From Verrucomicrobiia bacterium (GTDB lineage Bacteria > Verrucomicrobiota > Verrucomicrobiia > Limisphaerales > UBA1319), in assembly GCA_963664225.1 (NCBI GenBank), contig OY760937.1, positions 672,001-736,000 on the forward strand: a stretch of 64,000 nt of DNA, read 5' to 3'. Each line of letters begins with the position of its first letter. Within the stretch, counting starts at the first letter, position 1. The notes under the pieces are model-generated. The model was not told the origin of the DNA. It was given only the letters and a program-made list of their open reading frames with translations, and did no database searches. Made by a program: the position numbers and the translations under genes. This document shows positions 45,654 to 64,000 of this stretch, piece after piece.

Positions 45654-46319
45654 TCAGTGGCGCAGTTTTCGATACGAGGCGAAACCTAACAGAACCAGTC
45701 CAGTTGCCAAAGTGCAGGTCAGCGGTTCCGGCACGCCGGTGATTTCCACCGACCAACCATTTAAAGTCGTTGTGCCGCCCGATTCGAGACTGGCTATGAA
45801 TAACGTCCAGTTTCCGTTGGCGTCTGTAGAGTTGAAAGAGGCCAGAGTGGCGTTTCGCGGGCTCGTGCCGAGAACCAGGTCGGGATCCACGTTTCGCCCG
45901 TCCGTTTGCCAATTGCCGGTCAGGGCCAGACCAGCCGAAGGGGGTTCGATTGTGTTGTAAAGATGGATGTCCCGATTAACAAGCGAGTCATCAAACGTAA
46001 TATTCAGGCCATGATCATCGTAACCGGCGAGGTTTGAGGCGGTTCGCCCTGGACGATTCAGAAGGATGGAAATGTCATTGTCATGGCTTAAATAGGCATA
46101 CAGACCGCCATTGCTATCCGAAGAAACATCGAAAGTGACCCGCACCGAATCGATCGACGTAATGGCTGAGCTTGCATCAAAAGTCAGAGCGACGCCGGAG
46201 GCGTTGCCGTCTGCAATCGATAAATTCAGTCCGGAAAAAGTGTATGTCTCGGTTACGGCTGCGGTCAAGGGCAGGGAACCCACTCCCAAAAGCAGCAATA
46301 GCAGCGATGTTTTTTTCAT
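45654..46319 (-). CDS. PEP-CTERM protein with a proprotein-convertase P-domain-like beta-sandwich
   Basis: Signal peptide. LASFNSTDANGNWTLFI..LNGWSVEI. C-terminal VPEP + TM + RKLRH. Confidence 0.85.
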   Translation of the reverse strand: MKKTSLLLLLLGVGSLPLTAAVTETYTFSGLNLSIADGNASGVALTFDASSAITSIDSVRVTFDVSSDSNGGLYAYLSHDNDISILLNRPGRTASNLAGYDDHGLNITFDDSLVNRDIHLYNTIEPPSAGLALTGNWQTDGRNVDPDLVLGTSPRNATLASFNSTDANGNWTLFIASLESGGTTTLNGWSVEITGVPEPLTCTLATGLVLLGFASYRKLRH

Positions 46320-46372
46320 GATGTGCATCTTAGTTCAGCGGGTCGATTTGCTTTGATTGGATGGTCGCAAAA

Positions 46373-49300
46373 TCAGGGATAAACGGTCCGGTAAAACCGC
46401 AATGGCGATCCTGAGTTATCGTCGTAAATAATCGTCCCGGAGGGGCCGGCGATGGAAGTGCCCAGGGTTTGCCAGTCGATGGGGTGAATCAGGCTCGTCG
46501 TGTATTGAATTGTGTATGAGCGTCCAGGGATGCCGCCGAATGTTATGCGATAAACGCCCGATCCCAGGTTTTGGATGCTGCCAATTTGATTTGAACCGGT
46601 GGAATCATCGGTTTTGATGTTGACGGTGACTGTTCCTTCGGCAGTCCCGCCGTGTCCATCGCTGATGGTGTAAGTGAAGGTATCACTACTGGTGAATCCG
46701 GCAGCGGGGACATAATGAACCCAGGTATCCGCCAGGTAAATTGACGCTCCATTCGCGCTCGTCGGGAAAACAGCGGTGATGGTCAAAGCGTCGCTGTCAG
46801 GATCGGTATCGTTGGCCAGCAAGGCGGTAGTGGCGACTTTGACACCCTGGGTGGCGAAGCGTTGAATCGCATCGGCGACCGCTGTCGGCGCATGATTTAC
46901 GGAAGTGGTCACAACCGTTGTGGCACTGTTGACAACCGGAGTGAAAACCCCATCCGTCACATTGATGGTGAAGGTGGTGGTTTCCGTGGAGCCACGCGTG
47001 ACACGATTTGAAGTTGGGGCAAAAACCAGGAGGCGGATGGCGGTGGTGGCATCGGCAGCGGTGCCATTAAATGTATAAGCACCCGGTCCAGCCAATGTGA
47101 AACCCGAGCCTGTCAACGAGGCAGGGGTGAACGCACCTTTCGCGGCGTTGTCCAGGGTTATGGTTGTGTCCAGAGTTTGCGCGGGCACATCGCTATTTGC
47201 AATCGTCACCCCGACGAATGGTGAGAGAGTGGCGTTATCATTCACCGCCTGTCCAGACAGAGTTCCGGCTATTGTTGGTGGCAAATTCACAGTTGCAGTG
47301 GCGCTCGGTCCGGCGGCCGGAGCCGTATTTCCCGCCAGATCAATGGCGGTTCCGGCAGCGATGGAGATACCCAGAGGACCATGGCCTGTAATATTGGAGA
47401 TGCTGACGGTGCGCGTGAGTCCGCTCCCGGAGACGGTGATCGTCCCACCGGCGGTGCCCGGGCTGTTCAAAGTGATGTCTCCGACGGCCAGCGTGCTCAC
47501 ATCGAAGTTTGCATCAGCATAAGTCACCGTAAAATCCACTGAACCGCCGGTTGTAACCGTCGGCGAAGGCGCGCTGATGACGATGGTGGGGGCCACGCCG
47601 TCCACGAGGATACCGCTGGTGCCGGCCATGCCATTTAAAGTGAGATTTGCGTTGATCGCCGACGAATCCCGCAGTGTGGCGCCGTTGAGCACGAGCGCTC
47701 CGGCCAGTGCGATTCCGTCGTTATCGCCATTTCCGGCTGCGACCACATATCGAAAGGTTAAGGCGGTTGAACCGCTGCCGGAGAGGTATGCGGCCTGCAC
47801 CGTTCCTCCTGTGGAGAGCGTGACTGGAAGGTAAGGGGTTGCGCCAGCGACCACGATTGCCTCGTTGAAAGTGACGGTAAAATCCAGCGCCTGACCGACC
47901 CCATAAAGTGCGTCAGGTGGAACGTCAACGGAATTGACGGTCGGCACAACTGAAATATTTGCAGTTTTGGATTGCGCATCGACAATGGCCACGGCACTAG
48001 CGCTTCCGGGTGCGGTGGCGGTAAACGTGGCGGTGGCGGTTCCAGAAGACTGAATCGTAGTTTGCGCAGAGGACAGGGTGCCATGCACGGCGCTTCCAAA
48101 AGTTATGGGAACACCGACCAAGGCAGCAAGGTTGGCCGGACTGATGGTGTTGGCGCCGGAATCAGTCAGAAAGCTGGCGGTCAGTGTGGTGGTTCCTCCC
48201 ACGCCGTCGGCAATGGTGGCTGGACTGGCCGAGTGGGTCATTTGCAGCCAAAGGGTGGCCGTGGCGTTCACCATCTGGTTGGCTGCGGGACCGGTGTTGA
48301 TCCCCCACCAATTATCATTGGCGGTCAAGGTGCTACTGGTTCCACCGCGTAAAGTCAGGCCGTTGGCCGCAGTGGCTGCGGTGTTTCCAAGGAAACGACA
48401 ATAACTGACTGTGACATTGTGGCCGCTGCCGTCGGCAGATCCGATGGCTCCACCAGCGCCAGTCGGGCTTGTGGCCTGGTTGTTTTGGAATGTGGACAAG
48501 GCGATCGTCAATGTGCCGCTTTGGTTATAAATAGCTCCACCTCTGGTATTTAAGCCAGTAATCTGATTTCCAATAAAACTGCAGCCACTGATCGAGTAGG
48601 TGGTTCCCAAGCCTGTGGTTTCAATCGCGCCACCATTTCCGCTCGTGGAAATGTTATTGGTGAATTGCGAACTGGACAAGGTCAGGATGCCAGTCCCTCC
48701 GCTGGTGCTGGCGTCGAAAGCAATTGCGCCTCCGCCACCAGAAGACCCATTACCATTAAATGTGCAGTTGCTTACCGTGAGGTTGCCTCCTGCGTTCGCA
48801 ATCGCACCCCCGATTGGGGAACCGAACCCGGAGGCGAAGTTGTCCGTGAAGAGACATCCTGTGACAATAGTCTGGTTCAAGCCGGATCCGCTGATCATGG
48901 CGCCACCGCCAATACCTGTGGTTTCACGTCCGCCTCTCATGGTGACATTCTTGACTGTGAAGAGGAAACTTGCATCGAGGTTGGGATTCACCTCCAGCAC
49001 GCGATCATTTGGCCTGGTCTGCTGGATGATTGTGGCAGCCGCAGATATGCCTTCAATAGTGGTACCGCTGCGGGTGATGTCCAGATCGCCCACGGCCGGG
49101 TCGGCCGGATAGTTTTCGCCCGTTCCGTCGATTGATAATTGATAAGTGCCTGCAGGAATAAGAATCCGGTGGGGAGCGCCGGTGGGGTCGTTGTTTGCGG
49201 CGATGATCGCTTCGCGCAAGCTGATGCCGTCCGGGCCTGGGCTGCCGGTTAACGCGCTGATGCTCGTGGTGTTGCCGTTGATTGCATCCGCGGTCGTGGT

Positions 49301-49378
49301 CACGGTGATGTCTGTCGCATATCCGCTCTGAGCTAAACAGAGGACCAGCATCGACGAGGCAATAAACAGTTTTTTCAT
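46373..49378 (-). CDS. Large secreted adhesin-like protein (CSLREA-like/beta-helix N-terminus, Ig-like and cadherin-like domains, C-terminal FYR domain)
   Basis: Signal peptide MKKLFI, ISLREAIIAAN, GGAI repeats, LLANDTDPDSD..FTYTISDG. Ends YTIQYTTSL..W..RFYRTVYP. Confidence 0.8.
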   Translation of the reverse strand: MKKLFIASSMLVLCLAQSGYATDITVTTTADAINGNTTSISALTGSPGPDGISLREAIIAANNDPTGAPHRILIPAGTYQLSIDGTGENYPADPAVGDLDITRSGTTIEGISAAATIIQQTRPNDRVLEVNPNLDASFLFTVKNVTMRGGRETTGIGGGAMISGSGLNQTIVTGCLFTDNFASGFGSPIGGAIANAGGNLTVSNCTFNGNGSSGGGGAIAFDASTSGGTGILTLSSSQFTNNISTSGNGGAIETTGLGTTYSISGCSFIGNQITGLNTRGGAIYNQSGTLTIALSTFQNNQATSPTGAGGAIGSADGSGHNVTVSYCRFLGNTAATAANGLTLRGGTSSTLTANDNWWGINTGPAANQMVNATATLWLQMTHSASPATIADGVGGTTTLTASFLTDSGANTISPANLAALVGVPITFGSAVHGTLSSAQTTIQSSGTATATFTATAPGSASAVAIVDAQSKTANISVVPTVNSVDVPPDALYGVGQALDFTVTFNEAIVVAGATPYLPVTLSTGGTVQAAYLSGSGSTALTFRYVVAAGNGDNDGIALAGALVLNGATLRDSSAINANLTLNGMAGTSGILVDGVAPTIVISAPSPTVTTGGSVDFTVTYADANFDVSTLAVGDITLNSPGTAGGTITVSGSGLTRTVSISNITGHGPLGISIAAGTAIDLAGNTAPAAGPSATATVNLPPTIAGTLSGQAVNDNATLSPFVGVTIANSDVPAQTLDTTITLDNAAKGAFTPASLTGSGFTLAGPGAYTFNGTAADATTAIRLLVFAPTSNRVTRGSTETTTFTINVTDGVFTPVVNSATTVVTTSVNHAPTAVADAIQRFATQGVKVATTALLANDTDPDSDALTITAVFPTSANGASIYLADTWVHYVPAAGFTSSDTFTYTISDGHGGTAEGTVTVNIKTDDSTGSNQIGSIQNLGSGVYRITFGGIPGRSYTIQYTTSLIHPIDWQTLGTSIAGPSGTIIYDDNSGSPLRFYRTVYP

Positions 49379-49499
49379 GGGAATCATGTTCAAAAAGGAA
49401 CGGCGGAAGAAGCAGCAGCACGGAAAGGCGCAGCCTGGCCGATTGTCAGCCAGACCGGACAGATGATGATGGATTGTTGCAGGTGCAATGAGATCAATC

Positions 49500-50024
49500 T
49501 CAGTTTCTGCTTGGAAAAACTCCGAATAACCCGATGCAAAAATTGAGGACAAGATAGGGTGACAAATTATTGTGGGGCTGGTTGCCCCCAGCAAGCGATG
49601 GGCTGCCGGGACTGATGGTTGCGTTGCTGGTTGAAGAATAGAGATTCACCGTTTGACGCAGGGCCTTGGCTGCGGCCCACGAGTGGTTCGTTGGAGAACT
49701 TTGATTGCCTGCGCCGGTATTGGCCGAAAAATGTGTATGCATGGGCAATCCCGTGTTTGACAATGTGACATTTGTCGTACCCCCTTCTTCACCCAAGAAG
49801 CGTTGCGTTAATCCGGGACCCTGACCTTGATGGATGGGAGCGCGGCCCTGCAAATTGGGCAGGGCAAAGTTGGTGGTGCCGTTACCGCCATAGGTTGTTC
49901 CCAGAATTGAAAAAAGCGCGGTATTCTGTTGGATGGGCAGCAATTGACCGTTGCACATGGCCCAATTGCGCGGGGCGAAGTTAAACCCAAATATCCGAAT
50001 TTCACCGATGAATGACTCTGACAT
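49500..50024 (-). CDS. Phage tail-collar domain protein (MdpB-like), copy 3
   Basis: FIGEIRIFGFNFAPRNWAMCNGQLL, LFSILGTTYGGNG..FALPNLQGR. C-terminal GVFPSRN. Confidence 0.9.
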   Translation of the reverse strand: MSESFIGEIRIFGFNFAPRNWAMCNGQLLPIQQNTALFSILGTTYGGNGTTNFALPNLQGRAPIHQGQGPGLTQRFLGEEGGTTNVTLSNTGLPMHTHFSANTGAGNQSSPTNHSWAAAKALRQTVNLYSSTSNATISPGSPSLAGGNQPHNNLSPYLVLNFCIGLFGVFPSRN

Positions 50025-50042
50025 GATTTATCCTTTCAGCTT

Positions 50043-50531
50043 CTAGTTTCGGGAAGGGAATATGCCTTGTATGGCAATGCAATAGTTAACCACCAAATAT
50101 GGGGGGCGATTCTCGTGCGGCTGGCTTCCACCTGCTCCGGCCGGGTTCATGATCGCATTCGCAGTCCCCGCGTAGAGGCTTTGGCCCGAGTTGGCCCAAT
50201 AATGATTTTGCGGATTGCTTTGATCGGCACTGGTGGCATTGGCGGCAATAGGATGGGTGTGGATGGGCATTTCATTTTGCGTCAGCGCGTGCACCTCCTC
50301 ACCGCCAACCTGACCCTGCGTATAACCATTGCCCAAATGGTATGGAGCGCGTCCGCGAAGGTCAGGAAGCGCAAATGTTTGTATTCCATTTCCGCCATAG
50401 GTCGTTCCCAGAAGGGCAAAAAGGGCCTGGTTCTGAGCGATTGACATGAGTTGACCTGAGCATGTTGCCCAGCCGCGCGGGGCAAAATCAAATCCAAACA
50501 TCCGGACTTCACCTAGGAATGGGGTTGACAT
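50043..50531 (-). CDS. Phage tail-collar domain protein (MdpB-like), copy 2
   Basis: FLGEVRMFGFDFAPRGWATCSGQ, LGTTYGGNG..FALPDLRGR. C-terminal GIFPSRN. Confidence 0.9.
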   Translation of the reverse strand: MSTPFLGEVRMFGFDFAPRGWATCSGQLMSIAQNQALFALLGTTYGGNGIQTFALPDLRGRAPYHLGNGYTQGQVGGEEVHALTQNEMPIHTHPIAANATSADQSNPQNHYWANSGQSLYAGTANAIMNPAGAGGSQPHENRPPYLVVNYCIAIQGIFPSRN

Positions 50532-50564
50532 AATGTTCTTTCAGTTTGATGGCTGCCTGATGGA

Positions 50565-51071
50565 TTAATTGCGCGACGGGAAAACACCCTCCAAGGCGAT
50601 GATGAAGTTTAATGTCAGGAATGGCGGCATGTTTTCATGCGGCTGGTTGCCGCCTGCCACTGGGAACATGGTGGTATTGGGTGATTGATCAGTGTAAGGC
50701 CGCAAATTCGCTGAGGCCGCCCAAAAATTGTTTGTAGGATCGGTGCTGGTCCCAAGATCGGAATTGCACGCCACGGCATGACTATGCACGGGTATTTGGT
50801 TTGGGATCAAAGTTACGGTTTCTGTGCCGCTACGTTGACCAATGACATAGTTTGAAAGGCCCGGGCCTTGTCCCTGGCCCACGGGCACCCGTCCCTGCAG
50901 GTTTGGAAGGCCAAATGTGGTCATACCATCTCCGCCATATATCGTTCCAATCAAGGCAAACAGCGCGTCGTTTTGTGAAATTGCCAGCAATTGCCCACTG
51001 CAGAAGGCATAACCACGTGGCGCAAAATTGCCGGCGAACATCATTATTTCTCCTAAAAATGGCGTGGCCAT
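50565..51071 (-). CDS. Phage tail-collar domain protein (MdpB-like), copy 1
   Basis: FLGEIMMFAGNFAPRGYAFCSGQ, IGTIYGGDG..FGLPNLQGR. C-terminal GVFPSRN. Confidence 0.9.
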   Translation of the reverse strand: MATPFLGEIMMFAGNFAPRGYAFCSGQLLAISQNDALFALIGTIYGGDGMTTFGLPNLQGRVPVGQGQGPGLSNYVIGQRSGTETVTLIPNQIPVHSHAVACNSDLGTSTDPTNNFWAASANLRPYTDQSPNTTMFPVAGGNQPHENMPPFLTLNFIIALEGVFPSRN

Positions 51072-51109
51072 AAAATTCCTTTTCGGGTTATTGTGTCAGG
51101 TTTGAGCGA

Positions 51110-51610
51110 CTATTGGTTGCTGCTGGTGCGTTGGCCCGGACGGGCAACGACTTTCGGACTAACGACCAGCGAGGGTTGCCTGCCGGGCCGGTTGAATACG
51201 GCTTCGTAATAGCAATACTCCTGATCGTTAACAACAATGGGCACGATGAAAATTGAAAAGCAGCCGATGGCGTTATGAGTGAACAAGTAGGTGTTCTGAT
51301 CGAGAGGTTGATCCAGCGATCCGCGGAAGGTGAGGGAAAACTTTTCATTCCCAGAGTCTGCTCTGCGCAATGACGATGTTTTCGATGGCTGAGGAGTCTG
51401 CACCTTGGTCAGCATGAGATCAATCATCGCTCCCTCGCTTCCGATGACAGTGAACGTGGTGTTCACCTGTCGGATGAACATGCCCATATGGATGGAGTCA
51501 AGCGAAACCTCGGTGATAGGGGAGGCACCTCCAAAAACAGTGACTGGAGCGATTGCGACCCCCGCGGCAAGCGTGGTGCAGTTCAAAAGAAACTCTCGGC
51601 GAGTAGGCAT
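51110..51610 (-). CDS. DUF6916-like protein with a twin-arginine signal
   Basis: MPTRREFL (Tat). FSLTFRG..LDQNTY.F.H..IG..IFIVPI..YYEAVFNR. Confidence 0.7.
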   Translation of the reverse strand: MPTRREFLLNCTTLAAGVAIAPVTVFGGASPITEVSLDSIHMGMFIRQVNTTFTVIGSEGAMIDLMLTKVQTPQPSKTSSLRRADSGNEKFSLTFRGSLDQPLDQNTYLFTHNAIGCFSIFIVPIVVNDQEYCYYEAVFNRPGRQPSLVVSPKVVARPGQRTSSNQ

Positions 51611-51798
51611 AAAATTACACAACTTCAGGCTAAATACGACTACGGACCTTGCGACTTTGATGACGTTCATCAGCAACGGCACCAACAACGCCGGAATAAA
51701 GCCAGATAAAGTGTTGGCGGTCAACTAAAAACGGCCCTCAATCGCGGCTTTTTCATAATTTTTGAATGACGCTGTTGATTGAAGAATCAAATCGGCGC

Positions 51799-51813
51799 TG
51801 GCACGGGATTTGC
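51799..51813 (+). promoter_or_regulatory. Sigma54 (-24/-12) promoter
   Basis: TGGCAC-GGGAT-TTGC is a perfect TGGCAC-N5-TTGC match about 100 bp upstream of the GNAT gene. Confidence 0.7.
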
Positions 51814-51910
51814 GGAGGTTACGATCGCAGATATTGCCGGTTTTGTTCATCAGGGCGCTTGTCTTGCCCAAATCAAAAGCGTATCAGGGTGATATGTCAT
51901 ATTTCGGCCT

Positions 51911-52450
51911 ATGAACGATCAGGCGCAAAACCAGAATAACGAGCCCAACATTTCCAAGGCTGGGGTAGGTGTTGTTTCGCTTCGGCATGAAATGCCCGGG
52001 GATGAGGTCTTTCTTTTTGCAGTCTATGCTTCCACCCGCGAGGCGGAGCTTGCGATGACGGGTTGGGACGAGGCCGCGTGCACGGCTTTCCTGAACATGC
52101 AGTTTCGCGCCATGCGGGTGGGTTATCGCAGCTCTTTTCCCAATGCCGAATTTTCCATCGTCCTTTTCGATGGATGCCCCGTGGGACGACTCGTCGTGGA
52201 CCGAGGCGCAAAGGAGGTGTGTGTCGTGGATGTGGCTTTGCTGCCATCGAGTCGCAATAAGGGGCTTGGAACAAGACTCATGCGCAATCTCCTGGCCGAA
52301 GTTGAAGTGTCAGGAAAGCCCGTTCGTTTGCGTGTTCAAAAGGGCAGTCCGGCGAATCGGTTTTATCAACGGCTGGGTTTTAAACAGCTCGAAGAATTCG
52401 ATTTCGATGTAGAGATGGAATGGCTGCCCAATAAACAGGTGGAATCCTAA
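51911..52450 (+). CDS. GNAT family N-acetyltransferase
   Basis: YASTREAEL..FLNMQFRA, DVALLPSSRNKGLGT and PANRFYQRLGF motifs. Confidence 0.88.
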   Translation: MNDQAQNQNNEPNISKAGVGVVSLRHEMPGDEVFLFAVYASTREAELAMTGWDEAACTAFLNMQFRAMRVGYRSSFPNAEFSIVLFDGCPVGRLVVDRGAKEVCVVDVALLPSSRNKGLGTRLMRNLLAEVEVSGKPVRLRVQKGSPANRFYQRLGFKQLEEFDFDVEMEWLPNKQVES

Positions 52451-52791
52451 CGGGAGGGCACGAGCCGGTTAAAGACGGCCTCATAGTAGAGTTTGCCCTG
52501 GTCCCTGCGGATCGGGACGATAAAGAGTTGAAAGGCTCCCAGTCGATCGTGTGAGAACGGGTGCAGCATCTGGGGAAGCAGTTTGTCTGCGGGACCTGCA
52601 AACAGCAGGGAAAATCTCTCGTAATCCTGATTATTAGCCGACCCTGCCGGTGGATTGGTCCTGCGATACTGAACCGCCTCCACCAGTTCCAGATCCAGTG
52701 TTCCTGCGGGATCTGACCCCACCCGGAAATTTGTATTCAAGAGCCCTTGGAATTGCTCAAATGACAATTGATCGAGCGAGATCTCATTCAT
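52447..52791 (-). CDS. DUF6916-like protein (no signal peptide)
   Basis: FSLLFAGP..LLPQ..H.RLG..LFIVPI..YYEAVFNR. Paralogous to 51110-51610. Confidence 0.72.
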   Translation of the reverse strand: MNEISLDQLSFEQFQGLLNTNFRVGSDPAGTLDLELVEAVQYRRTNPPAGSANNQDYERFSLLFAGPADKLLPQMLHPFSHDRLGAFQLFIVPIRRDQGKLYYEAVFNRLVPSR

Positions 52792-53564
52792 ATGCTTTTT
52801 AATTCAGGTGGAGGTTGAAAGGGGCCTCCAAAGTAAACTCTATCGACGCGCTTGGTTGCTTTCAACCAGGCCTGCCTTTGGGCTTCGGGCATTTTGAAGC
52901 AGAAACTGTAATGAAGCGGAACGGGATAGTATCCATAGACCGCCAGAATTCTCAATCCGGGCACTTTTCGGGGTGAACCGCAATGCCACGTCCGCTGGTC
53001 GATCAACAAGGCATCTTCCTTATTGCAAAATGCCGGAACATCGGGAGAAACGTTGGGCAACAAAGTCAAATCACGATGGGAGCCCGGTATGATGCGTGTG
53101 GGGCCCTTCTCCCAGGTCAGATCATCAAAGTACATGCCTACGAAGACATCTTTTGGATAATGATATTCCTTGCCAGGCATTCCATCGGGCTCGCGGTCTT
53201 TGTGCCATTTGGGAACGGAATTGGGATCCTCGGGCGACTGAATCAACCAACGATTCATGTACAATGAGGGCAGGGGATTGGCGACGGAATGGCTCAGGGC
53301 AGGGGTCAATACCTGTCGCACGCGTGGCGCCAAGGCCGGCCAGATGATCAATGGGGATTCACCTGGCAGGTCCCATTCGAGGCCATCAAAGAACAGAGCC
53401 GCTTTAACCTGTTCGGCAAAGGCGTCCACAGTCTCACGCTTAAAGACCTGCGGCAGGATGACAAAGCCGAGATCACGGAATTCGGCCATCATTCGGTCCA
53501 GTTCCGGTTTTGGATAAAGCTCTGTTACAAATTCCAGCAATGGGGTATCCATAATTAGATCCAT
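52788..53564 (-). CDS. 2-oxoglutarate/Fe(II) dioxygenase, PhyH-like
   Basis: WHKD (HxD), GPTRIIPGSH, distal TWHCG and a downstream Arg. Confidence 0.82.
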   Translation of the reverse strand: MDLIMDTPLLEFVTELYPKPELDRMMAEFRDLGFVILPQVFKRETVDAFAEQVKAALFFDGLEWDLPGESPLIIWPALAPRVRQVLTPALSHSVANPLPSLYMNRWLIQSPEDPNSVPKWHKDREPDGMPGKEYHYPKDVFVGMYFDDLTWEKGPTRIIPGSHRDLTLLPNVSPDVPAFCNKEDALLIDQRTWHCGSPRKVPGLRILAVYGYYPVPLHYSFCFKMPEAQRQAWLKATKRVDRVYFGGPFQPPPELKSI

Positions 53565-54578
53565 TTAATTTTCCAAAGCAGTGTTGGTTGAATCCCGGAA
53601 AAGTTCCCGGTGCTTTGCCACCAAATCCGCATAAGGACCGGCCATCCAACGTTCCGCCAGTTGGTGTATCTCTGCGCTGGCCTCCTTCTTTTTATCCTCA
53701 CTGTCATTGCTGAATTGAAAGTGAGGATTTTTGGCATGGAACTGGGTTACGCGCTGCATTTGCTCAATTTCCCCGGCTGAATGTTGGAGTCGAAAATGGG
53801 TTGAGATGCCCGTCAAAACTGCGTCTGGTAATTGTCGGTAGTCCACCAGCAATCCCGTTTCATCGGGGAAATGTTCCAGGGCGGCCGCGCAGATTCTTCC
53901 AATCAGGGCAGCACAATACTCGTTCATTGAGAGTTGGCACAAGAGCTCCGGGTTCAATCCCATCAGGCCAGGCTCAAGGGCCATCGGCAAAAGCAATCCC
54001 CCGCGCTGACGAAACTGGGAGACGAGCACCTCGACCGGGTCACGATAAATGAATATCCACGGCACTGTTGGAAATGCCCGACGGATCAAGTCCAAACTCA
54101 GTGTGTTGATGCAGTCGAATTTGATAAAAAACTGTTTTTGTTCCGCAAGATTGGGTTGCGCCATGGCGTTCACCATGGCACGAATCCAGGTCAATTGCTC
54201 TTCGGGATCAAGGTTTGGGGTGCGATAGTTGGCCCGGATCATGACATCAATGGGGCCTGCCTCGGAAATGACGATGTTTTTCGCCAGCGCGGCATACATC
54301 TGCGATACCAGCGTCGATCCGCAACGCGACATATGGAAGATAAAGCCGTTGGGCGCCACTCCCGGATGCGAAGCGGCTCGTTCAAGCAAGGTTTCGACGG
54401 GCGTTTGGGGACGGAACAGCAGATTGTAGGGCAGACGCATGCACCGGCTAATGGTCTGATCGAAGAAGGAATCCGTGAAACGCCCGGCTCCCAGATAACA
54501 CCAGTCGATCATGGGGCGCGATTGCCGCCAATAAACCCGGATGGGAACGTAACCTTGCAATTGAGCGGAATTAATCAT
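53565..54578 (-). CDS. Sulfotransferase-like P-loop protein
   Basis: GFIFHMSRCGSTL (5'-PSB-like) and WIFIYRDPVEVLVS (3'-PB-like). Confidence 0.75.
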   Translation of the reverse strand: MINSAQLQGYVPIRVYWRQSRPMIDWCYLGAGRFTDSFFDQTISRCMRLPYNLLFRPQTPVETLLERAASHPGVAPNGFIFHMSRCGSTLVSQMYAALAKNIVISEAGPIDVMIRANYRTPNLDPEEQLTWIRAMVNAMAQPNLAEQKQFFIKFDCINTLSLDLIRRAFPTVPWIFIYRDPVEVLVSQFRQRGGLLLPMALEPGLMGLNPELLCQLSMNEYCAALIGRICAAALEHFPDETGLLVDYRQLPDAVLTGISTHFRLQHSAGEIEQMQRVTQFHAKNPHFQFSNDSEDKKKEASAEIHQLAERWMAGPYADLVAKHRELFRDSTNTALEN

Positions 54579-54596
54579 GGGGTTGGGAAATTCCAG

Positions 54597-54806
54597 TTAA
54601 CAAACAAACCGCTCGATCCAAGCCTGCATGTTGCCGCGTATGGCGATTTCCACCTCATCGCTCGAGAATGAGAAACCCTGTTCCGCTCCAAGTTGCACGA
54701 CCGACGCAGAAAAAGCTGTCCTGTCCGATATGCCGCGCAGTTGTTCCTGCAAGGCCCGATTCTCCAGAACCCGCTCGCAGAATTGTTCAAGACTGGTTTG
54801 TGACAT
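54597..54806 (-). CDS. Nif11-like small protein
   Basis: MSQTSLEQFCERVLENRALQEQL..VVQLGAEQGFSFSSDEV matches the Nif11 leader pattern. Short Trp-containing tail. Confidence 0.72.
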   Translation of the reverse strand: MSQTSLEQFCERVLENRALQEQLRGISDRTAFSASVVQLGAEQGFSFSSDEVEIAIRGNMQAWIERFVC

Positions 54807-57610: not shown

Positions 57611-57685
57611 TGGTGCGCGATACAGGTTTCGAACCTGTGACCCCTACCGTGTCAAGGTAATGCTCTACCACTGAGCTAACCGCGC
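57611..57685 (-). tRNA. tRNA-Val(GAC)
   Basis: GCGCGGTTAGCTCAGTGGTAGAGCATTACCTT-GAC-ACGGTAGGGGTCACAGGTTCGAAACCTGTATCGCGCACCA. Cloverleaf with encoded CCA. Confidence 0.97.
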
Positions 57686-59663: not shown

Positions 59664-60998
59664 TTATTTCCGACCGGCTTTGGCCACATAAACTTCTTCG
59701 TTGGGGAGGCTCCGAATGATCATTTCCACAGTGCGTTCGATGGCGCCCTGATTATCCGTGACCACTTTGAGGGCGTTTTGGCCCAGCTCCTGGCAGCGCT
59801 TTTCATTGGCCAGGAGCGAGGACAAGGCGGCTTCCAGTTCAGCAGGATTCTGCACCTGGACAGCGGCATTGTTTTTGACGAAGGCCTGGGCAATGGCCGC
59901 AAAATTCTGCATGTTCGGACCAAATACCATGGCTTTGCCCAAGGCGCCCGGCTCGATGGGATTTTGACCGCCCTGGGCCGTCAGACTTTTCCCGACAAAA
60001 ATCACGGTGGAGCGCTCGTAAAAGTATTTCAACTCACCCGTGGAATTCACCAGCAGGCAATCGATGGAACCTGTTGCGGGTTTATAACTGGGCACCACCT
60101 CGCTGCGATAGGCAAAGGGGATGCCACATTTTTCCAAGACCCGTCCCACTTCGCGGCCGCGCTCAAAATGCCGTGGCACCATTACGAGAAAAAGTTCCGG
60201 AAATTTTTGTTTCAGGCGTTTGAAACATTGCGCCAGAATTTCCTCTTCGCCGTTGTGAGTGCTGCCGCAGACCAGCAAGCGGGCATTTTCCGATGCGCCG
60301 AGCTGGCGGAGCATTGCGGGCACGTCCAGGAGGCGTCGCTCATTGAGTTTGGCGGAGTCAAATTTCATGTTGCCCATGACGTGAACCGCCTCGGGCTGAC
60401 ATCCCAGGTTTCGCAAACGCTCGCCATCTTCGGCGCTCTGAACACCCACACCGGCAAAACTTGCAAACAGATCCCGAAATAAAAGCCCAAACCGTGTATA
60501 GCCGCGGTACGAACGATCCGAGAGCCGGGCGTTGACCAGAAATACCGGGATGTTGCGGCTTTTGGCCTGCCAGAGAAAATTGGGCCAGATTTCGGCTTCG
60601 ACGAGTACGATGGCCTCCGGGCGGAGGGTGCTCAAGGCGCGTTGGACGCATTTTTTGCGATCCACCGGATAGTAGATTTTTGCGATGTGACTGGGCAATT
60701 TTCGCTTCAACTCACCCATGCCGGTGGTAGTGGTGGTTGAAACAATGATTTTTAAATTGGGTACTCGAGGCTCAAGGGCGCGGATGAGTTGTGTGCAGAT
60801 GTTGACTTCGCCCACGCTTACTGCATGAAGCCAGATCACCTGCCGGTTGGTAATGGCTTGTTTTAGCTTGGCATCATAATGGCCAAAACGTTGTTTAAAA
60901 CCATCCAACCAATTACCCCGTCTCCACATCCGCATAAAATAGTACGGCGATGACAGGACGAAAAACAGCAGGAACAGAACATTATAAATAATTCGCAT
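59664..60998 (-). CDS. waaA: 3-deoxy-D-manno-octulosonic acid transferase
   Basis: WLHAVSVGE, EAEIWPN, NARLSDRS, VPRHFER and GGQNPIEP motifs. Confidence 0.95.
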   Translation of the reverse strand: MRIIYNVLFLLFFVLSSPYYFMRMWRRGNWLDGFKQRFGHYDAKLKQAITNRQVIWLHAVSVGEVNICTQLIRALEPRVPNLKIIVSTTTTTGMGELKRKLPSHIAKIYYPVDRKKCVQRALSTLRPEAIVLVEAEIWPNFLWQAKSRNIPVFLVNARLSDRSYRGYTRFGLLFRDLFASFAGVGVQSAEDGERLRNLGCQPEAVHVMGNMKFDSAKLNERRLLDVPAMLRQLGASENARLLVCGSTHNGEEEILAQCFKRLKQKFPELFLVMVPRHFERGREVGRVLEKCGIPFAYRSEVVPSYKPATGSIDCLLVNSTGELKYFYERSTVIFVGKSLTAQGGQNPIEPGALGKAMVFGPNMQNFAAIAQAFVKNNAAVQVQNPAELEAALSSLLANEKRCQELGQNALKVVTDNQGAIERTVEMIIRSLPNEEVYVAKAGRK

Positions 60999-61230
60999 GC
61001 GTCAACAGTCAATTGATTGACGCTCTATTCTTGTCACACCACAAGGGGAAATGACAAAGAAATAATTCCGTCCTTATTATCCGCAGGCTCTCCATAAAGG
61101 AACTCTGCTATAAGCGAAAAGTGCGATATGCCCGAGGATATGAGCCATTGATCGTTTTTTCATGGTTTGCTTTGAGATATCATCTCAGCCGGTAACGATA
61201 CCGCCCATGTTTATCTTTCAAAGCGCTGGT

Positions 61231-61593
61231 TTACGGTAATTTCCCCATTACCTGCTCCGGCGTCACTCCAACCAAGGCTATTGTCTTATGACGCGAAGTG
61301 TGACCGCGTACGAGTTGGATGTGGTTGCGGGGACAATCCAGGACATCGGCAAGGAGGCGCAAAAGGGCTTCATTCGCTGCGGCATCGACTGGAGGCGCGG
61401 TGACTTTGACGCGTAATTCGGCCCCAAGAGGACCTTCGATTTCGTTCCTGGAAGCGCGGGGTTGGAGTTTCACCGCCAACAGCAAAGTGTTCTCCTGTTG
61501 TCGGAGAAATGCCGGCAGTGGACAGGCGATTGGCGAGTTTCCCGGTTTTGGCGGAGGAAAAACGGCTTTTTTCTTTTTCTGATTAAGGGACAC
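61231..61593 (-). CDS. DUF167/YggU family protein
   Basis: VKLQPRASRNEI, VTAPPVDAAAN and GHTSRHK motifs. Confidence 0.88.
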   Translation of the reverse strand: MSLNQKKKKAVFPPPKPGNSPIACPLPAFLRQQENTLLLAVKLQPRASRNEIEGPLGAELRVKVTAPPVDAAANEALLRLLADVLDCPRNHIQLVRGHTSRHKTIALVGVTPEQVMGKLP

Positions 61594-61629
61594 AGATCGT
61601 TTTTGGCAGAGTCAAAGCACTTTGCTAAA

Positions 61630-62022
61630 TCAATTGTTCAATGTCTTAAGAGCCTTGTTTTGATCTGAAGTGCGGATGATAAGGAGGCCGTTTTTTGATT
61701 TTGGCGGTGTGGCCGAATAGCAGTATTCGATGTTGATATGGGCTTTGGAGAGCTTTTCGGAAATTTCCACCAGAGCGCCGGGCTTGTTCGAGCACTCGAT
61801 CATGAGCACCTCATTGGTAATGGTGAGGGTGTTATGGTCTTGGAAAATCTGAAGAGCGCGTGCGGTATCGTTAACGATCATGCGCACCACATTATAGTCC
61901 ACCGTGTCGCCAGTGGAGAGCGCATGGATGTTGATTTTGGCATCGCGCAAGGCCTGGCAAACACGGGCCAGGGTGCCGGGACGATTTTGAAGAAACACGG
62001 CTATCTGCGTGGCGATGTTCAT
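61630..62022 (-). CDS. Tandem ACT-domain protein
   Basis: QIAVFLQNRPGTLA..INI and NKPGAL..INIEYCY. Confidence 0.85.
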   Translation of the reverse strand: MNIATQIAVFLQNRPGTLARVCQALRDAKINIHALSTGDTVDYNVVRMIVNDTARALQIFQDHNTLTITNEVLMIECSNKPGALVEISEKLSKAHINIEYCYSATPPKSKNGLLIIRTSDQNKALKTLNN

Positions 62023-62301
62023 GATCATATAAAAATCCCGGTTGAATCTGATCCACCCAACTCCTGGAAGAGGTGATCGTCAAGCGGGAAGTACCGGTAT
62101 TGTAAGGCAATCTGTGGATTGCAGTGGGCCAAAAGCGATGGAAAACTTTATTGAATCGAGTGAAATGAGGCGACGTCTAACCTTTCAATAGAAGCGCGGA
62201 ACGGGTTCTTGCGCCAAGATAATGGATCAGTTAAACTGAACAGATCATTAAGAAATGACAGATTGCAGTGCAAGACCTGCAAGCTGAAAACGAAAAGAAA
62301 T

Positions 62302-62649
62302 ATGAAAAAAATCCAAATTGCATTGATGGTCACGGCGCTGACAATTGGCGCATTCGGCGTTCAGGCGCAGGATGTCAAAGCGGAAGCCAAGGCGAATTTC
62401 GAAAAATTCTGTGCCGGTTGTCATGGAAAAGAAGGCAAGGGTGACACAAAACTGGGGCAGAAGCTTGAGGCCAGGGATTATACCGATGCGAAGGTTCAGT
62501 CCACCTTGAAGGAAGAGGACATGTTCAAAGCCATCAAGGAGGGTTTGAAAAAAGGGGACAAAGTTTTGATGAAGCCATACAGCGACAAATTCACTGATGC
62601 GCAAATCAAGGCTCTGGTTGCGTATGTCAAGGACTTCGCCAAAAAGTAA
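62302..62649 (+). CDS. Monoheme class I cytochrome c
   Basis: Signal peptide, CAGCH and the distal-Met segment LMKPY. Confidence 0.9.
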   Translation: MKKIQIALMVTALTIGAFGVQAQDVKAEAKANFEKFCAGCHGKEGKGDTKLGQKLEARDYTDAKVQSTLKEEDMFKAIKEGLKKGDKVLMKPYSDKFTDAQIKALVAYVKDFAKK

Positions 62650-62712
62650 GTAAATTACCAATCATTTTGCCAGCCATTCAGGCGTTTGGGCTTGATGGCG
62701 CCACTCAACGTT

Positions 62713-62746
62713 AAATCCCTGTTTTATGACAGGGATTTTTCATTTT
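62713..62746 (+). terminator. Rho-independent terminator after cytochrome c
   Basis: AAATCCCTGT-tttatg-ACAGGGATTT followed by TTCATTTT. Confidence 0.75.
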
Positions 62747-62975
62747 CAAGCAGGCGCGCAAACTCCCGGGGCGATGGCGCAAACCAGGAAATAAGGGCAT
62801 TTTAGTTGGAAGGACGTTGAGGAGCGTGGAGAGCGTTAAAATTATAGACAGAATTGCCACAAAACGCTTTGCCTTGTGGAAATAGCGTGATAGAAATTGT
62901 TTAGTAAAGCCACAGAAGATCATACCACGCATGCCCATGGGCCAGTGTGGTTCGATTGTATTAAAGAAATTGATT

Positions 62976-64000
62976 ATGAATACAGTATCCAGCCTGAAAA
63001 TTGTCACTAAAAACCTCAAAGGGCTTGTCGAAGCAGCATTAGCCGACTCTGGCGGTTTGTTGCGTCTGGCTCCTTGCTGGGTTCCCCGCTCTTTCCTGCA
63101 TCCCGGCCGTCGATTAAAATTGGCTCCTCAAGATTTATATGCATTTGGAGTCAATCGCGGCGGCATTGATGAAAGATGGTTTGCTTCGACCACACCCGCA
63201 GCCAATGAAAATCGCACGGAGGATGAGGGCTTGAGCTACGTTGCGGCTGGGGGACAACGGTTTACGCTGAAGGATGCCGTTGACCAGGCTGGGGCCACCA
63301 TTGTAGGCAAACGACTCTGGAACAAATACAAAAGGTGGCCGGTTTATTCGAAATTCTTCGACAACATGGGACCGATTCCTCATCACATGCACCAATCGGC
63401 AAAGCATGCCAAATTGATTGGCCTGGAAGGCAAGCCGGAGTCGTATTATTTTCCGCCGCAACACAATAACGTGGGAAACAATTTCCCATATACCTTCTTT
63501 GGTTTTGAGCCTGGAACGACGAAAGCGCAAGTGCGCAAGTGTCTTGAGAATTGGAATGTTGAGGATAATGGGATTCTGGATTTGTCCAAAGCCTACCGTT
63601 TGAAACCAGGTTCCGGCTGGCTTGTAGGGCCTGGCATTCTTCACGCGCCCGGCTCGCTTTGCACCTATGAACCGCAATGGGGTTCGGACGTGTTCGGGAT
63701 GTATCAAAACCTGGTCGAAGGGCGGGAAGTGCCCTGGTCGCTGTTGGTTAAAGACATGCCCAAGGAAAAGCAAAAGGATCTGGATTTCATCGTGAGCGAG
63801 CTCGATTGGGAGGCGAATGTCGATCCGAATTTCAAGGAGAACCACTATCTGGAGCCGGTGCCTGTGGCCGACACGCGCAAGGAAGGTTACGTGGATCGTT
63901 GGATTGTTTATGACAAGATCAACGGTCAGCAGAGTTTCACAGCGAAGGAGTTGACCATCGATCCGGGAACGCGTTGCACCATCAAGGACGGCGGGGCTTA
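62976..64000 (+). CDS. Cupin-fold, mannose-6-phosphate-isomerase-like conserved protein (runs off the window)
   Basis: Manual translation MNTVSSLK..LRLAPCWVPRSF..GGIDERWFAS..KFFDNMGPIPHHMH..GKPESYYF..GILHAPGS. Open to the window end. Not in the ORF track. Confidence 0.7.
   Translation, partial: MNTVSSLKIVTKNLKGLVEAALADSGGLLRLAPCWVPRSFLHPGRRLKLAPQDLYAFGVNRGGIDERWFASTTPAANENRTEDEGLSYVAAGGQRFTLKDAVDQAGATIVGKRLWNKYKRWPVYSKFFDNMGPIPHHMHQSAKHAKLIGLEGKPESYYFPPQHNNVGNNFPYTFFGFEPGTTKAQVRKCLENWNVEDNGILDLSKAYRLKPGSGWLVGPGILHAPGSLCTYEPQWGSDVFGMYQNLVEGREVPWSLLVKDMPKEKQKDLDFIVSELDWEANVDPNFKENHYLEPVPVADTRKEGYVDRWIVYDKINGQQSFTAKELTIDPGTRCTIKDGGA

Follow-up and report, generated by a model that had tools for sequence, protein, structure and literature searches.

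The window analyzed in this study (64,000 nucleotides of contig OY760937.1 from a Verrucomicrobiia bacterium, with positions numbered from its first letter) contains a compact block of eleven open reading frames (ORFs; Table 1), in which three phage-type tail-collar genes are combined with a GNAT acetyltransferase, two DUF6916 proteins, a sulfotransferase of the type using 3'-phosphoadenosine-5'-phosphosulfate (PAPS), a PhyH-type hydroxylase, a small Nif11-domain ORF, a large adhesin and a PEP-CTERM-type protein. The GNAT gene is the sole plus-strand gene and is convergent with the gene for the cytoplasmic DUF6916 protein, with a 4-nt overlap. The ten minus-strand genes form two runs, transcribed in the order Nif11, sulfotransferase, PhyH and cytoplasmic DUF6916 (run 1) and DUF6916 with a twin-arginine translocation (Tat) signal, collars A, B and C, adhesin and PEP-CTERM-type protein (run 2). 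These positions and domains, first proposed in an earlier sequence-only reading of the window, were confirmed for all eleven ORFs by Pfam and NCBIfam scans; Pfam matches exceed the curated cut-offs for ten proteins, while those of the PEP-CTERM-type protein do not. The Nif11 ORF probably starts at M9 (54806), which is also where the block had originally been taken to end, and the adhesin measures 1004 amino acids (aa) counted from its first ATG and 1001 aa if translation begins at the second Met. Promoter and terminator scans of the block gave counts not above those of shuffled sequence.

Table 1. Genes of the block, in order of decreasing window coordinate
Feature	Position	Strand	Length	Domain or sequence evidence
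Nif11-domain ORF	54597..54806	-	69 aa from M9; frame open to 54830	PF07862, 43.9 bits
PAPS-type sulfotransferase	53565..54578	-	337 aa	Sulfotransfer_3 PF13469, 31.9 bits (cut-off 27)
PhyH-type Fe(II)/2-oxoglutarate hydroxylase	52788..53564	-	258 aa	PF05721, 30.2 bits (cut-off 22)
Cytoplasmic DUF6916 protein	52447..52791	-	114 aa	PF21880, 90.9 bits
GNAT acetyltransferase	51911..52450	+	179 aa	PF13508 and PF00583
Tat-signal DUF6916 protein	51110..51610	-	166 aa from MPTRREFLL	PF21880, 67.7 bits
Collar protein A	50565..51071	-	168 aa	PF07484, 97.2 bits (cut-off 24)
Collar protein B	50043..50531	-	162 aa	PF07484, 99.5 bits (cut-off 24); weak Gp10_C match
Collar protein C	49500..50024	-	174 aa	PF07484, 97.9 bits (cut-off 24)
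Sec-signal surface protein (adhesin)	46373..49387	-	1004 aa	Chlam_PMP, Big_9, cadherin-like (Pfam, NCBIfam)
PEP-CTERM-type protein	45654..46328	-	224 aa	VPEP, hydrophobic stretch and basic tail at C-terminus

The block represents one instance of a non-viral cassette with a wide but patchy distribution, as seen in its gene content, in the linkage of its genes across phyla, in fusions between its domains and in the absence of a phage context. The core of this cassette comprises one to three collar proteins, a GNAT acetyltransferase, a cytoplasmic DUF6916 protein, often a Tat-signal DUF6916 protein and, usually, a large secreted surface protein encoded downstream; the copy in the window additionally carries an accessory module composed of the PAPS sulfotransferase, a split-off Nif11 domain and the PhyH-type hydroxylase. 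A search with the sulfotransferase yielded 3555 homologues at E<=0.001 among 7999 scored candidates, and the best 80 of at least 594 genome stretches encoding a relative were taken as sulfotransferase-centered loci. By record title, these 80 loci represent at least nine phylum-level groups (Acidobacteriota, Verrucomicrobiota, Planctomycetota, Chloroflexota, Myxococcota, Cyanobacteria, Alphaproteobacteria, Actinomycetota and Bacteroidota), with collar genes within 10 kb in 53 loci (median distance from the sulfotransferase 1.7 kb), a GNAT gene in 47, DUF6916 in 44 and a hydroxylase in 55. A sample of 301 Acidobacteriota genomes, approached from the collar side, contains Collar matches in 36 genomes, mostly as three hits spaced by approximately 520-600 bases; in the 23 collar-triplet loci taken from this sample, GNAT (within ~7 kb) and DUF6916 are each found in 21, and a window-type surface protein in eight. 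The recurrence of this neighborhood in unrelated bacteria, which the sequence-only reading had put forward, is supported from both directions. Literature searches (DUF6916; tail collar with sulfotransferase; Nif11 with sulfotransferase and hydroxylase) retrieved no study of the cassette and no mention of DUF6916. Partial parallels are nevertheless on record: the table of a 2009 genome paper on Pseudomonas syringae pv. tabaci 11528 (PMC2745422) notes in passing a strain-specific island with an acetyltransferase, a phage collar protein, a sulfotransferase, an S-layer-domain protein and a 1618-aa protein, and expression tables for Acaryochloris marina (PMC11633204) list three collar genes, an acetyltransferase and neighboring hypothetical genes as changing together.

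Among the genomes examined, the sulfotransferase family almost never occurs without collar genes, to which it is an optional add-on. Collar genes are found in 30, and some cassette gene in 32, of the 47 loci with at least 8 kb of sequence on both sides; the genomes of the other 15 all carry small collar genes elsewhere (15/15 vs. 36/301 in the Acidobacteriota sample), which should be taken as a strong trend and not as a probability, since these 15 genomes span several phyla and are not independent. In the Acidobacteriota sample, the family is present in six genomes, including the one on which the search was centered; four of the other five have it 2-5 kb from collar genes on the same contig, and the fifth, with a weaker partial match, has no collars. 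Taken together, the 53/80 loci, 15/15 genomes and 4/5 Acidobacteriota genomes bear out the initial proposal that the enzymes are tied to the collar genes. A fused ATP sulfurylase/adenosine-5'-phosphosulfate (APS) kinase for PAPS synthesis adjoins the module in 9 of the 80 loci and in a metagenome contig (L081), and in the genome of the window an APS-kinase domain is present in a 643-aa frame elsewhere.

The hydroxylase of the window represents a less common version of the module. Most loci (54/80) use an AspH-type hydroxylase, for which the PhyH-type enzyme of the window stands in; a window-type PhyH was found in only one other of the 80 loci (L058). An AspH-type gene was not found in the window genome by a search that gave no match in control genomes either. 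The PhyH protein has no signal peptide, and its residues H121-x-D123...H194, which we read as the His-x-Asp...His iron triad, are invariant in 32 of 32 rows of the alignment (A2). The subfamily is small (80 homologues in a word-indexed search). An 80%-identical relative in L081 is embedded in the exact layout of the window with the PAPS-synthesis gene beside it, and relatives of ~49-52% identity stand directly upstream of collar genes in four further metagenome contigs (L085, L086, L088 and L093), three of which continue with a periplasmic-binding-protein-like gene and a giant SprB/Calx-beta/TIG protein and have no sulfotransferase. The Peripla_BP_6-type protein is located between the collar genes and the giant adhesin at L085:10914-12179 and L088:2910-4055. 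Other PhyH relatives are found in unrelated contexts, including L083 (1423-7720), where three PhyH paralogues (one of them 54% identical to the window protein) accompany a transglutaminase-like protein (PF13471) and an ABC exporter in what looks like a peptide-maturation-like cluster with several hydroxylases. That two oxygenase families fill the same role in the cassette argues that hydroxylation is the selected function.

The enzymes are further connected by the Nif11 domain, which adjoins or is fused with the sulfotransferase in 78 of the 80 loci. Besides stand-alone Nif11 ORFs, same-frame fusions join AspH to Nif11 (19 cases), Nif11 to sulfotransferase (6), all three (2) and GNAT to Nif11 (1), while GNAT is fused to AspH in five ORFs; Nif11 is placed at the C-terminus of the hydroxylase and at the N-terminus of the sulfotransferase. 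Likewise, four of the 120 sulfotransferase homologues listed have a precomputed Nif11 domain and a fifth (P0007) has one by sequence, always N-terminal. These fusions tie the enzymes to one pathway. The window ORF itself is 48% identical to the N-terminus of a Nif11-sulfotransferase fusion (P0006), last residues included: it ends ~10 residues past the domain, and its tail AWIERF aligns with AWFERF of the enzyme fusions. The simplest reading is that this ORF represents a detached adaptor or docking domain common to the enzymes of one pathway. The sequence-only reading had considered an associated peptide as a possible substrate, and a Nif11 peptide in this role is not supported: the ORF has no core peptide and no Gly-Gly motif, it scores below the cut-off of the leader model TIGR03798 (30.9 vs. 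32.3 bits) for ribosomally synthesized and post-translationally modified peptides (RiPPs), and its homologues are fused to enzymes, so that the RiPP precursor assignment was rejected. A related explanation, according to which a RiPP-like cluster (Nif11, hydroxylase and sulfotransferase) merely neighbors an unrelated collar/adhesin operon, could draw on the role of Nif11 domains as RiPP leaders in other systems, on the near-threshold TIGR03798 match and on L083, where a PhyH relative is accompanied by a transglutaminase-like protease and by an ABC transporter. It is largely refuted, and we regard it as very improbable, by the early end of the ORF and the conservation of its tail with enzyme fusions, by the fusion of Nif11 to three different enzymes, by the fact that the module follows collar genes across phyla, and because no maturation protease or exporter was found among the 11 island proteins or in the flanks.

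All three collar proteins are free of signal peptides and consist of little more than the collar domain and a small head. An HxH pair (H96/H98 in A, H91/H93 in B and H96/H98 in C) is invariant in the alignments of the respective paralogues (A3, 13 rows; A4, 13 rows; A5, 17 rows), and a QPHxN motif and a G[IV][FY]PS-type C-terminus are kept beside it in all three. In the fibre tips of phage T4, histidines of this kind coordinate a metal ion at the axis of the trimer. The collar N-termini read Met, a small residue, then x-Pro-Phe/Tyr; the small residue would be exposed after removal of the Met. In a tree of 21 triplets, labels for the position within the triplet change 12 times, compared to a mean of 30.2 after shuffling (0 of 200 shuffles as low), and window collars A, B and C fall in the position-1, -2 and -3 groups, the deep branches of this tree being weakly supported. 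A mixed trimer is suggested by this agreement between triplet position and phylogeny and by virophage DSLV2, whose three collar genes in a row encode proteins reported to co-purify in a 1:1:1 heterotrimer able to bind Synechococcus cells (PMC12724248). The number and surroundings of collar genes vary between loci: L018 (9914-16388) combines a sulfotransferase, a GNAT-AspH fusion, a Tat-DUF6916 protein, one collar gene and a 386-aa secreted repeat protein, with a 597-aa ORF, read from its sequence as sulfatase-like, on the opposite strand just beyond the cassette, and in L040 (15997-17448) a protein with CBM96 and collagen triple-helix domains is encoded ~3.4 kb from a four-gene collar run. In another study (PMC9881135), a PilV-collar fusion in a pilus locus is read as reuse of a phage domain.

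Given such domains, a prophage or tailocin remnant with an accidental neighborhood had to be considered. Collar A does match PHROG tail proteins, the block has a lower GC content than its left flank, and the authors of PMC2745422 guessed a phage-borne transfer for the similar Pseudomonas syringae pv. tabaci island. This explanation is, however, largely refuted by the context and appears extremely improbable, even more so than an accidental RiPP-like neighbor. The entire 5.78-Mb genome contains three Collar and two DUF6916 matches, all within the block, and not a single match to sheath or Baseplate_J; neither an integrase nor a flanking repeat nor an adjacent tRNA was detected for the block, and its flanks are housekeeping genes (an Mrp/Nuo-like operon on one side; hrpB, proS and kdtA on the other). 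In addition, the three collar genes are all intact and of conserved order, they are accompanied by the same non-phage partners in 21 of 23 triplet loci, and DUF6916 has no match to any PHROG family. We have therefore rejected the prophage/tailocin assignment, in line with the original view of the collar genes as standing outside any prophage or contractile system. A tRNA-Val (GAC) gene is located between hrpB and proS (57611-57685, minus strand), ~2.8 kb off the block and not at its boundary. Viral contigs were considered as a source as well, and a viral origin was not demonstrated in this way: the closest collar relatives (49-52% identity) are found on short contigs together with GNAT, sulfotransferase or integrase. 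Two records filed as viral are rich in collar genes, one with nine consecutive copies (L161, whole contig of 5.5 kb) and another with three collagen-like tail-fibre-like proteins followed by six collar genes (L162:231-8528).

The block is AT-richer than its surroundings on the left, as had been noticed at the outset (GC 0.50-0.55 over 45.5-55 kb vs. 0.59-0.63 in the left flank). Composition alone is moderate evidence of transfer, because the far right of the window is GC-poor too; there, right of kdtA, the stretch 60500-63500 has a GC content of 0.45-0.52 and contains a 356-aa open-ended ORF without Pfam match. Comparison with 20 relatives revealed ~70% DNA identity for the flanking genes and no DNA match for the enzyme region in any of them; in these relatives the flanking Mrp gene and hrpB are on separate contigs, and no clean empty insertion site is demonstrable. 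A genome of the same genus (G001, 93% complete) has no collar triplet, triplets are present in three genomes of the same family and one of the same order, and the sulfotransferase family is found in none of these five relatives. DUF6916 occurs in only 5 of 301 sampled genomes of the window's own phylum, the window genome included. Such a patchy distribution is as expected for a transferable accessory module.

A different history is suggested for the downstream end of the block. An ORF of at least 450 aa directly follows the last collar gene in 28 of the 50 loci with room downstream, and the adhesin filling this place in the window has a Sec signal and PMP-type beta-helix repeats. The PEP-CTERM-type protein matches NF038126 at 22.7 bits (cut-off 50), with a P_proprotein match that is also sub-threshold, and, having no counterpart in the 80 sulfotransferase loci, is read as a local addition. 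With a window-type adhesin in just 13 of these 80 loci, this end of the block is lineage-specific, as had been proposed for the adhesin. The region 45660-47622, which runs from the PEP-CTERM gene into the part of the adhesin gene encoding the C-terminus, has a match of 68% DNA identity in the same-genus genome (G001:C150:2679-4632). As that genome has this region and no triplet, the adhesin/PEP-CTERM pair may have been in place before the collar module arrived.

The protein encoded directly upstream of the collars offers a possible route to the envelope. Its N-terminus, MPTRREFLLNCTTLAAGVAIAP, displays a twin-arginine motif (TRREFLL) followed by a hydrophobic stretch, and the two DUF6916 proteins are 36% identical, the Tat version being the same domain behind a 31-residue signal. 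The RR motif is present in at least 28 of the 66 DUF6916 ORFs of the loci; it is invariant in the 28 rows of alignment A6, rows that were chosen by that very motif. An AlphaFold2 model of DUF6916 (predicted local distance difference test, pLDDT, 83.5) is a six-strand small beta-barrel, for which Foldseek retrieved nothing among solved structures at E<=0.001, the top weak rows being phage tail-tube/hub folds (E 0.03-0.1). A four-chain prediction of collars A, B and C with the mature Tat-DUF6916 protein, based on shallow alignments, reached a score of 0.40, compared to 0.12 for the best control, with a partner pLDDT of at least 70 and agreement between runs in at least 84% of contacts. Of 157 solved complexes, 116 attain the mark applied to such predictions, as do 2 of 215 mismatches; at scores of 0.60 or below, only 18 of the 157 attain it, together with both mismatches. 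The prediction thus gives weak support to an association of the collars with the Tat-signal DUF6916 protein. Tat hitchhiker export, in which signal-less partners are carried by a subunit with a Tat signal, is well known from E. coli hydrogenase-2 and dimethyl sulfoxide (DMSO) reductase, and a piggy-back export of the collars by Tat-DUF6916 would be a reasonable proposal, although we hold it to be less likely than not.

The sulfotransferase has no signal peptide, and since the other enzymes and the collar proteins have none either, any tailoring must be cytoplasmic. Its AlphaFold2 model (pLDDT 92.3) has tyrosylprotein sulfotransferases (TPSTs) as best Foldseek matches (3ap3, E 6.7e-7), the TPST and CurM matches spanning E values from 6.7e-7 to 1e-5 and template-modelling scores of 0.42-0.53; 31 solved chains were retrieved at E<=0.001, and those listed are all sulfotransferases or the related retinol dehydratase. 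A profile comparison with the sequences of solved structures found no relative. AspH-type enzymes are protein Asp/Asn hydroxylases. A protein substrate is favored because the sulfotransferase fold is nearest to TPSTs, because kin of AspH hydroxylate proteins and because a PhyH relative is found in the peptide-maturation-like cluster of L083, as well as because GNAT gives a weak RimI-like match (NCBIfam) and the collars have a small N-terminal residue that could be exposed. We consider it somewhat more likely than not that the enzymes would tailor a protein product of the cassette. Alternatively, they could make or alter a small molecule, lipid or glycan, such as a hydroxylated and sulfated envelope component, with the collar trimer or the adhesin binding this product or the product serving the same surface trait. 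Such chemistry would fit the high rank, among the fold matches, of the CurM and olefin-synthase sulfotransferase domains, whose substrates are hydroxyls bound to an acyl carrier, and the free amino acids or small molecules used by those PhyH relatives that are closest among solved structures. It would also fit the presence of acyl-chain hydroxylases in both the PhyH and AspH families, the optional status of the enzyme module in collar cassettes and the sulfatase-like gene near the cassette in L018. We nevertheless regard it as unlikely: protein tyrosine sulfotransferases head the fold matches, the 80 loci share no recurring carrier-protein, glycosyltransferase or lipid gene (no further clustered family is found in more than 17 of them), the enzymes are almost confined to collar-bearing genomes, and GNAT, which belongs to the cassette core, also occurs as a fusion with the hydroxylase.

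Combining these observations, we propose a working model, which we hold to be evenly balanced between right and wrong, of a collar trimer tailored in the cytoplasm and exported with Tat-DUF6916. The three collar paralogues would fold in the cytoplasm as one mixed trimer; the signal-less enzymes would then tailor a cassette protein, most likely this trimer, at the expense of acetyl-CoA, 2-oxoglutarate/O2 and PAPS; the folded product would leave via Tat, riding on the Tat-signal DUF6916 protein; and at the envelope it would act as a binding tip together with the Sec-exported adhesin. A number of findings weigh against this model. The enzyme module is dispensable, with the sulfotransferase in only 4 of the 35 other collar genomes of the Acidobacteriota sample and an AspH-type hydroxylase in just 2 of the 23 triplet loci, and conversely a nearby cassette gene is missing from 15 of the 47 full-flank sulfotransferase loci. 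A hydroxylase is likewise missing from 15 of these 47, so sulfation need not follow hydroxylation. On the substrate side, the CurM domain, which sulfates a hydroxyl on an acyl carrier, comes shortly after the protein sulfotransferases in the fold ranking, and free leucine or small molecules are the substrates of the PhyH relatives closest among solved structures. The triplet order is not strict, as three loci (L023, L035 and L062) look like within-locus duplications, and single-collar copies such as L018 exist. Collars of 23 sulfotransferase-linked and 21 sulfotransferase-free triplets are not separated by any distinguishing column when positions are pooled; differences obtained by position were considered as modification sites and discarded, being best explained by a differing order of paralogues. 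As for export, the complex score is weak and covers the DUF6916 partner, not the collar trimer itself, and the DUF6916 fold is a generic small barrel, with the best Z of a wide structural search (7.8, for PilZ-N-type and other small split barrels) within the stated noise of the tool.

The function of the product at the surface may also differ from that of an adhesin tip. The collars could instead be the targeting part of an antagonistic or defensive device (a bacteriocin-like binder, an anti-predator coat or a phage decoy), with the modifications tuning recognition or protecting the producer. Receptor binding is the role of phage fibre tips, a Ruegeria exoproteome includes a collar-domain protein (PMC4949626), the distribution is patchy and transfer-like (DUF6916 in 5/301 genomes of the window's own phylum; no triplet in the same-genus relative), and a closely related triplet with GNAT adjoins an integrase and methyltransferases in L165. 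At the same time, Pfam and NCBIfam scans revealed no toxin, immunity or lysis gene in the island (PADLOC defence models were not scanned), and the place after the collar genes is commonly taken by a large surface protein; we deem a device of this kind improbable, somewhat more so than a small-molecule product. Returning to the tailored binding tip, its boldest form would be an undescribed route shared by many phyla, in which a heterotrimeric fibre-tip knob is acetylated, hydroxylated and O-sulfated in the cytoplasm by enzymes docking via Nif11, is escorted in folded form by a dedicated DUF6916 protein through Tat and is mounted on a giant adhesin. We think it unlikely that this scheme holds in full. 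If it did, the sulfated recognition tip, being exchangeable, would parallel in bacteria the sulfated protein ligands known from eukaryotes. Should the working model hold, bacteria would be seen to reuse a phage receptor-binding tip as their own surface tool. Protein sulfation and hydroxylation would join the short list of bacterial surface-protein modifications, the Nif11 domain would gain a role outside peptide natural products, and piggy-back Tat export would acquire a new example. The cassette is common in soil and freshwater phyla (collars in 36/301 sampled Acidobacteriota), and the network of fusions together with the nesting of the enzyme module in collar-bearing genomes makes the question directly testable.

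Overall, the role of the Nif11 domain, the tie between sulfotransferase and collars, the link between PhyH and collars and the TPST-like sulfotransferase fold are new, and a side-by-side comparison with known systems reveals both shared parts and differences. The Pseudomonas syringae pv. tabaci 11528 island, compared by the table in the paper (PMC2745422), resembles the window in its gene list and has one collar gene instead of three. Human TPST1/2 and tick TPST have the fold nearest to that of the window sulfotransferase and belong to the same family (PF13469), whereas the window enzyme, unlike TPSTs and CurM, has an extra ~70-residue N-terminal beta-hairpin region and a partner Nif11 domain. 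The Nif11-type RiPP leaders described by TIGR03798 share the same small helical domain (PF07862), which in the cassette is borne by, or split from, enzymes, so that the roles of enzyme and handle are reversed or unrelated. As in Tat hitchhiker systems, a Tat-signal protein is encoded directly upstream of signal-less proteins; the collars, as cargo, would have to fold and probably bind metal before export, and, unlike in those systems, there is no known cofactor-insertion logic. The fibre tips of phage T4 (gp12, gp37 and the C-terminal domain of gp10) likewise consist of a Collar domain followed by a head and are resembled by the window collars in the HxH motif and, for collar B, in the weak Gp10_C match; however, T4 forms one homotrimer, while the window encodes three paralogues that have no fibre shaft, begin at the collar domain itself and have no baseplate to attach to. 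The DSLV2 tripartite tail is likewise encoded by three small genes in a row, and each product combines a Collar domain (PF07484) with a small head. Its tails sit on a virus capsid, whereas the window triplet is chromosomal and is not accompanied by virion genes; to this common tripartite plan the window adds a GNAT acetyltransferase, DUF6916 proteins, a Tat signal, tailoring enzymes and a large surface protein.

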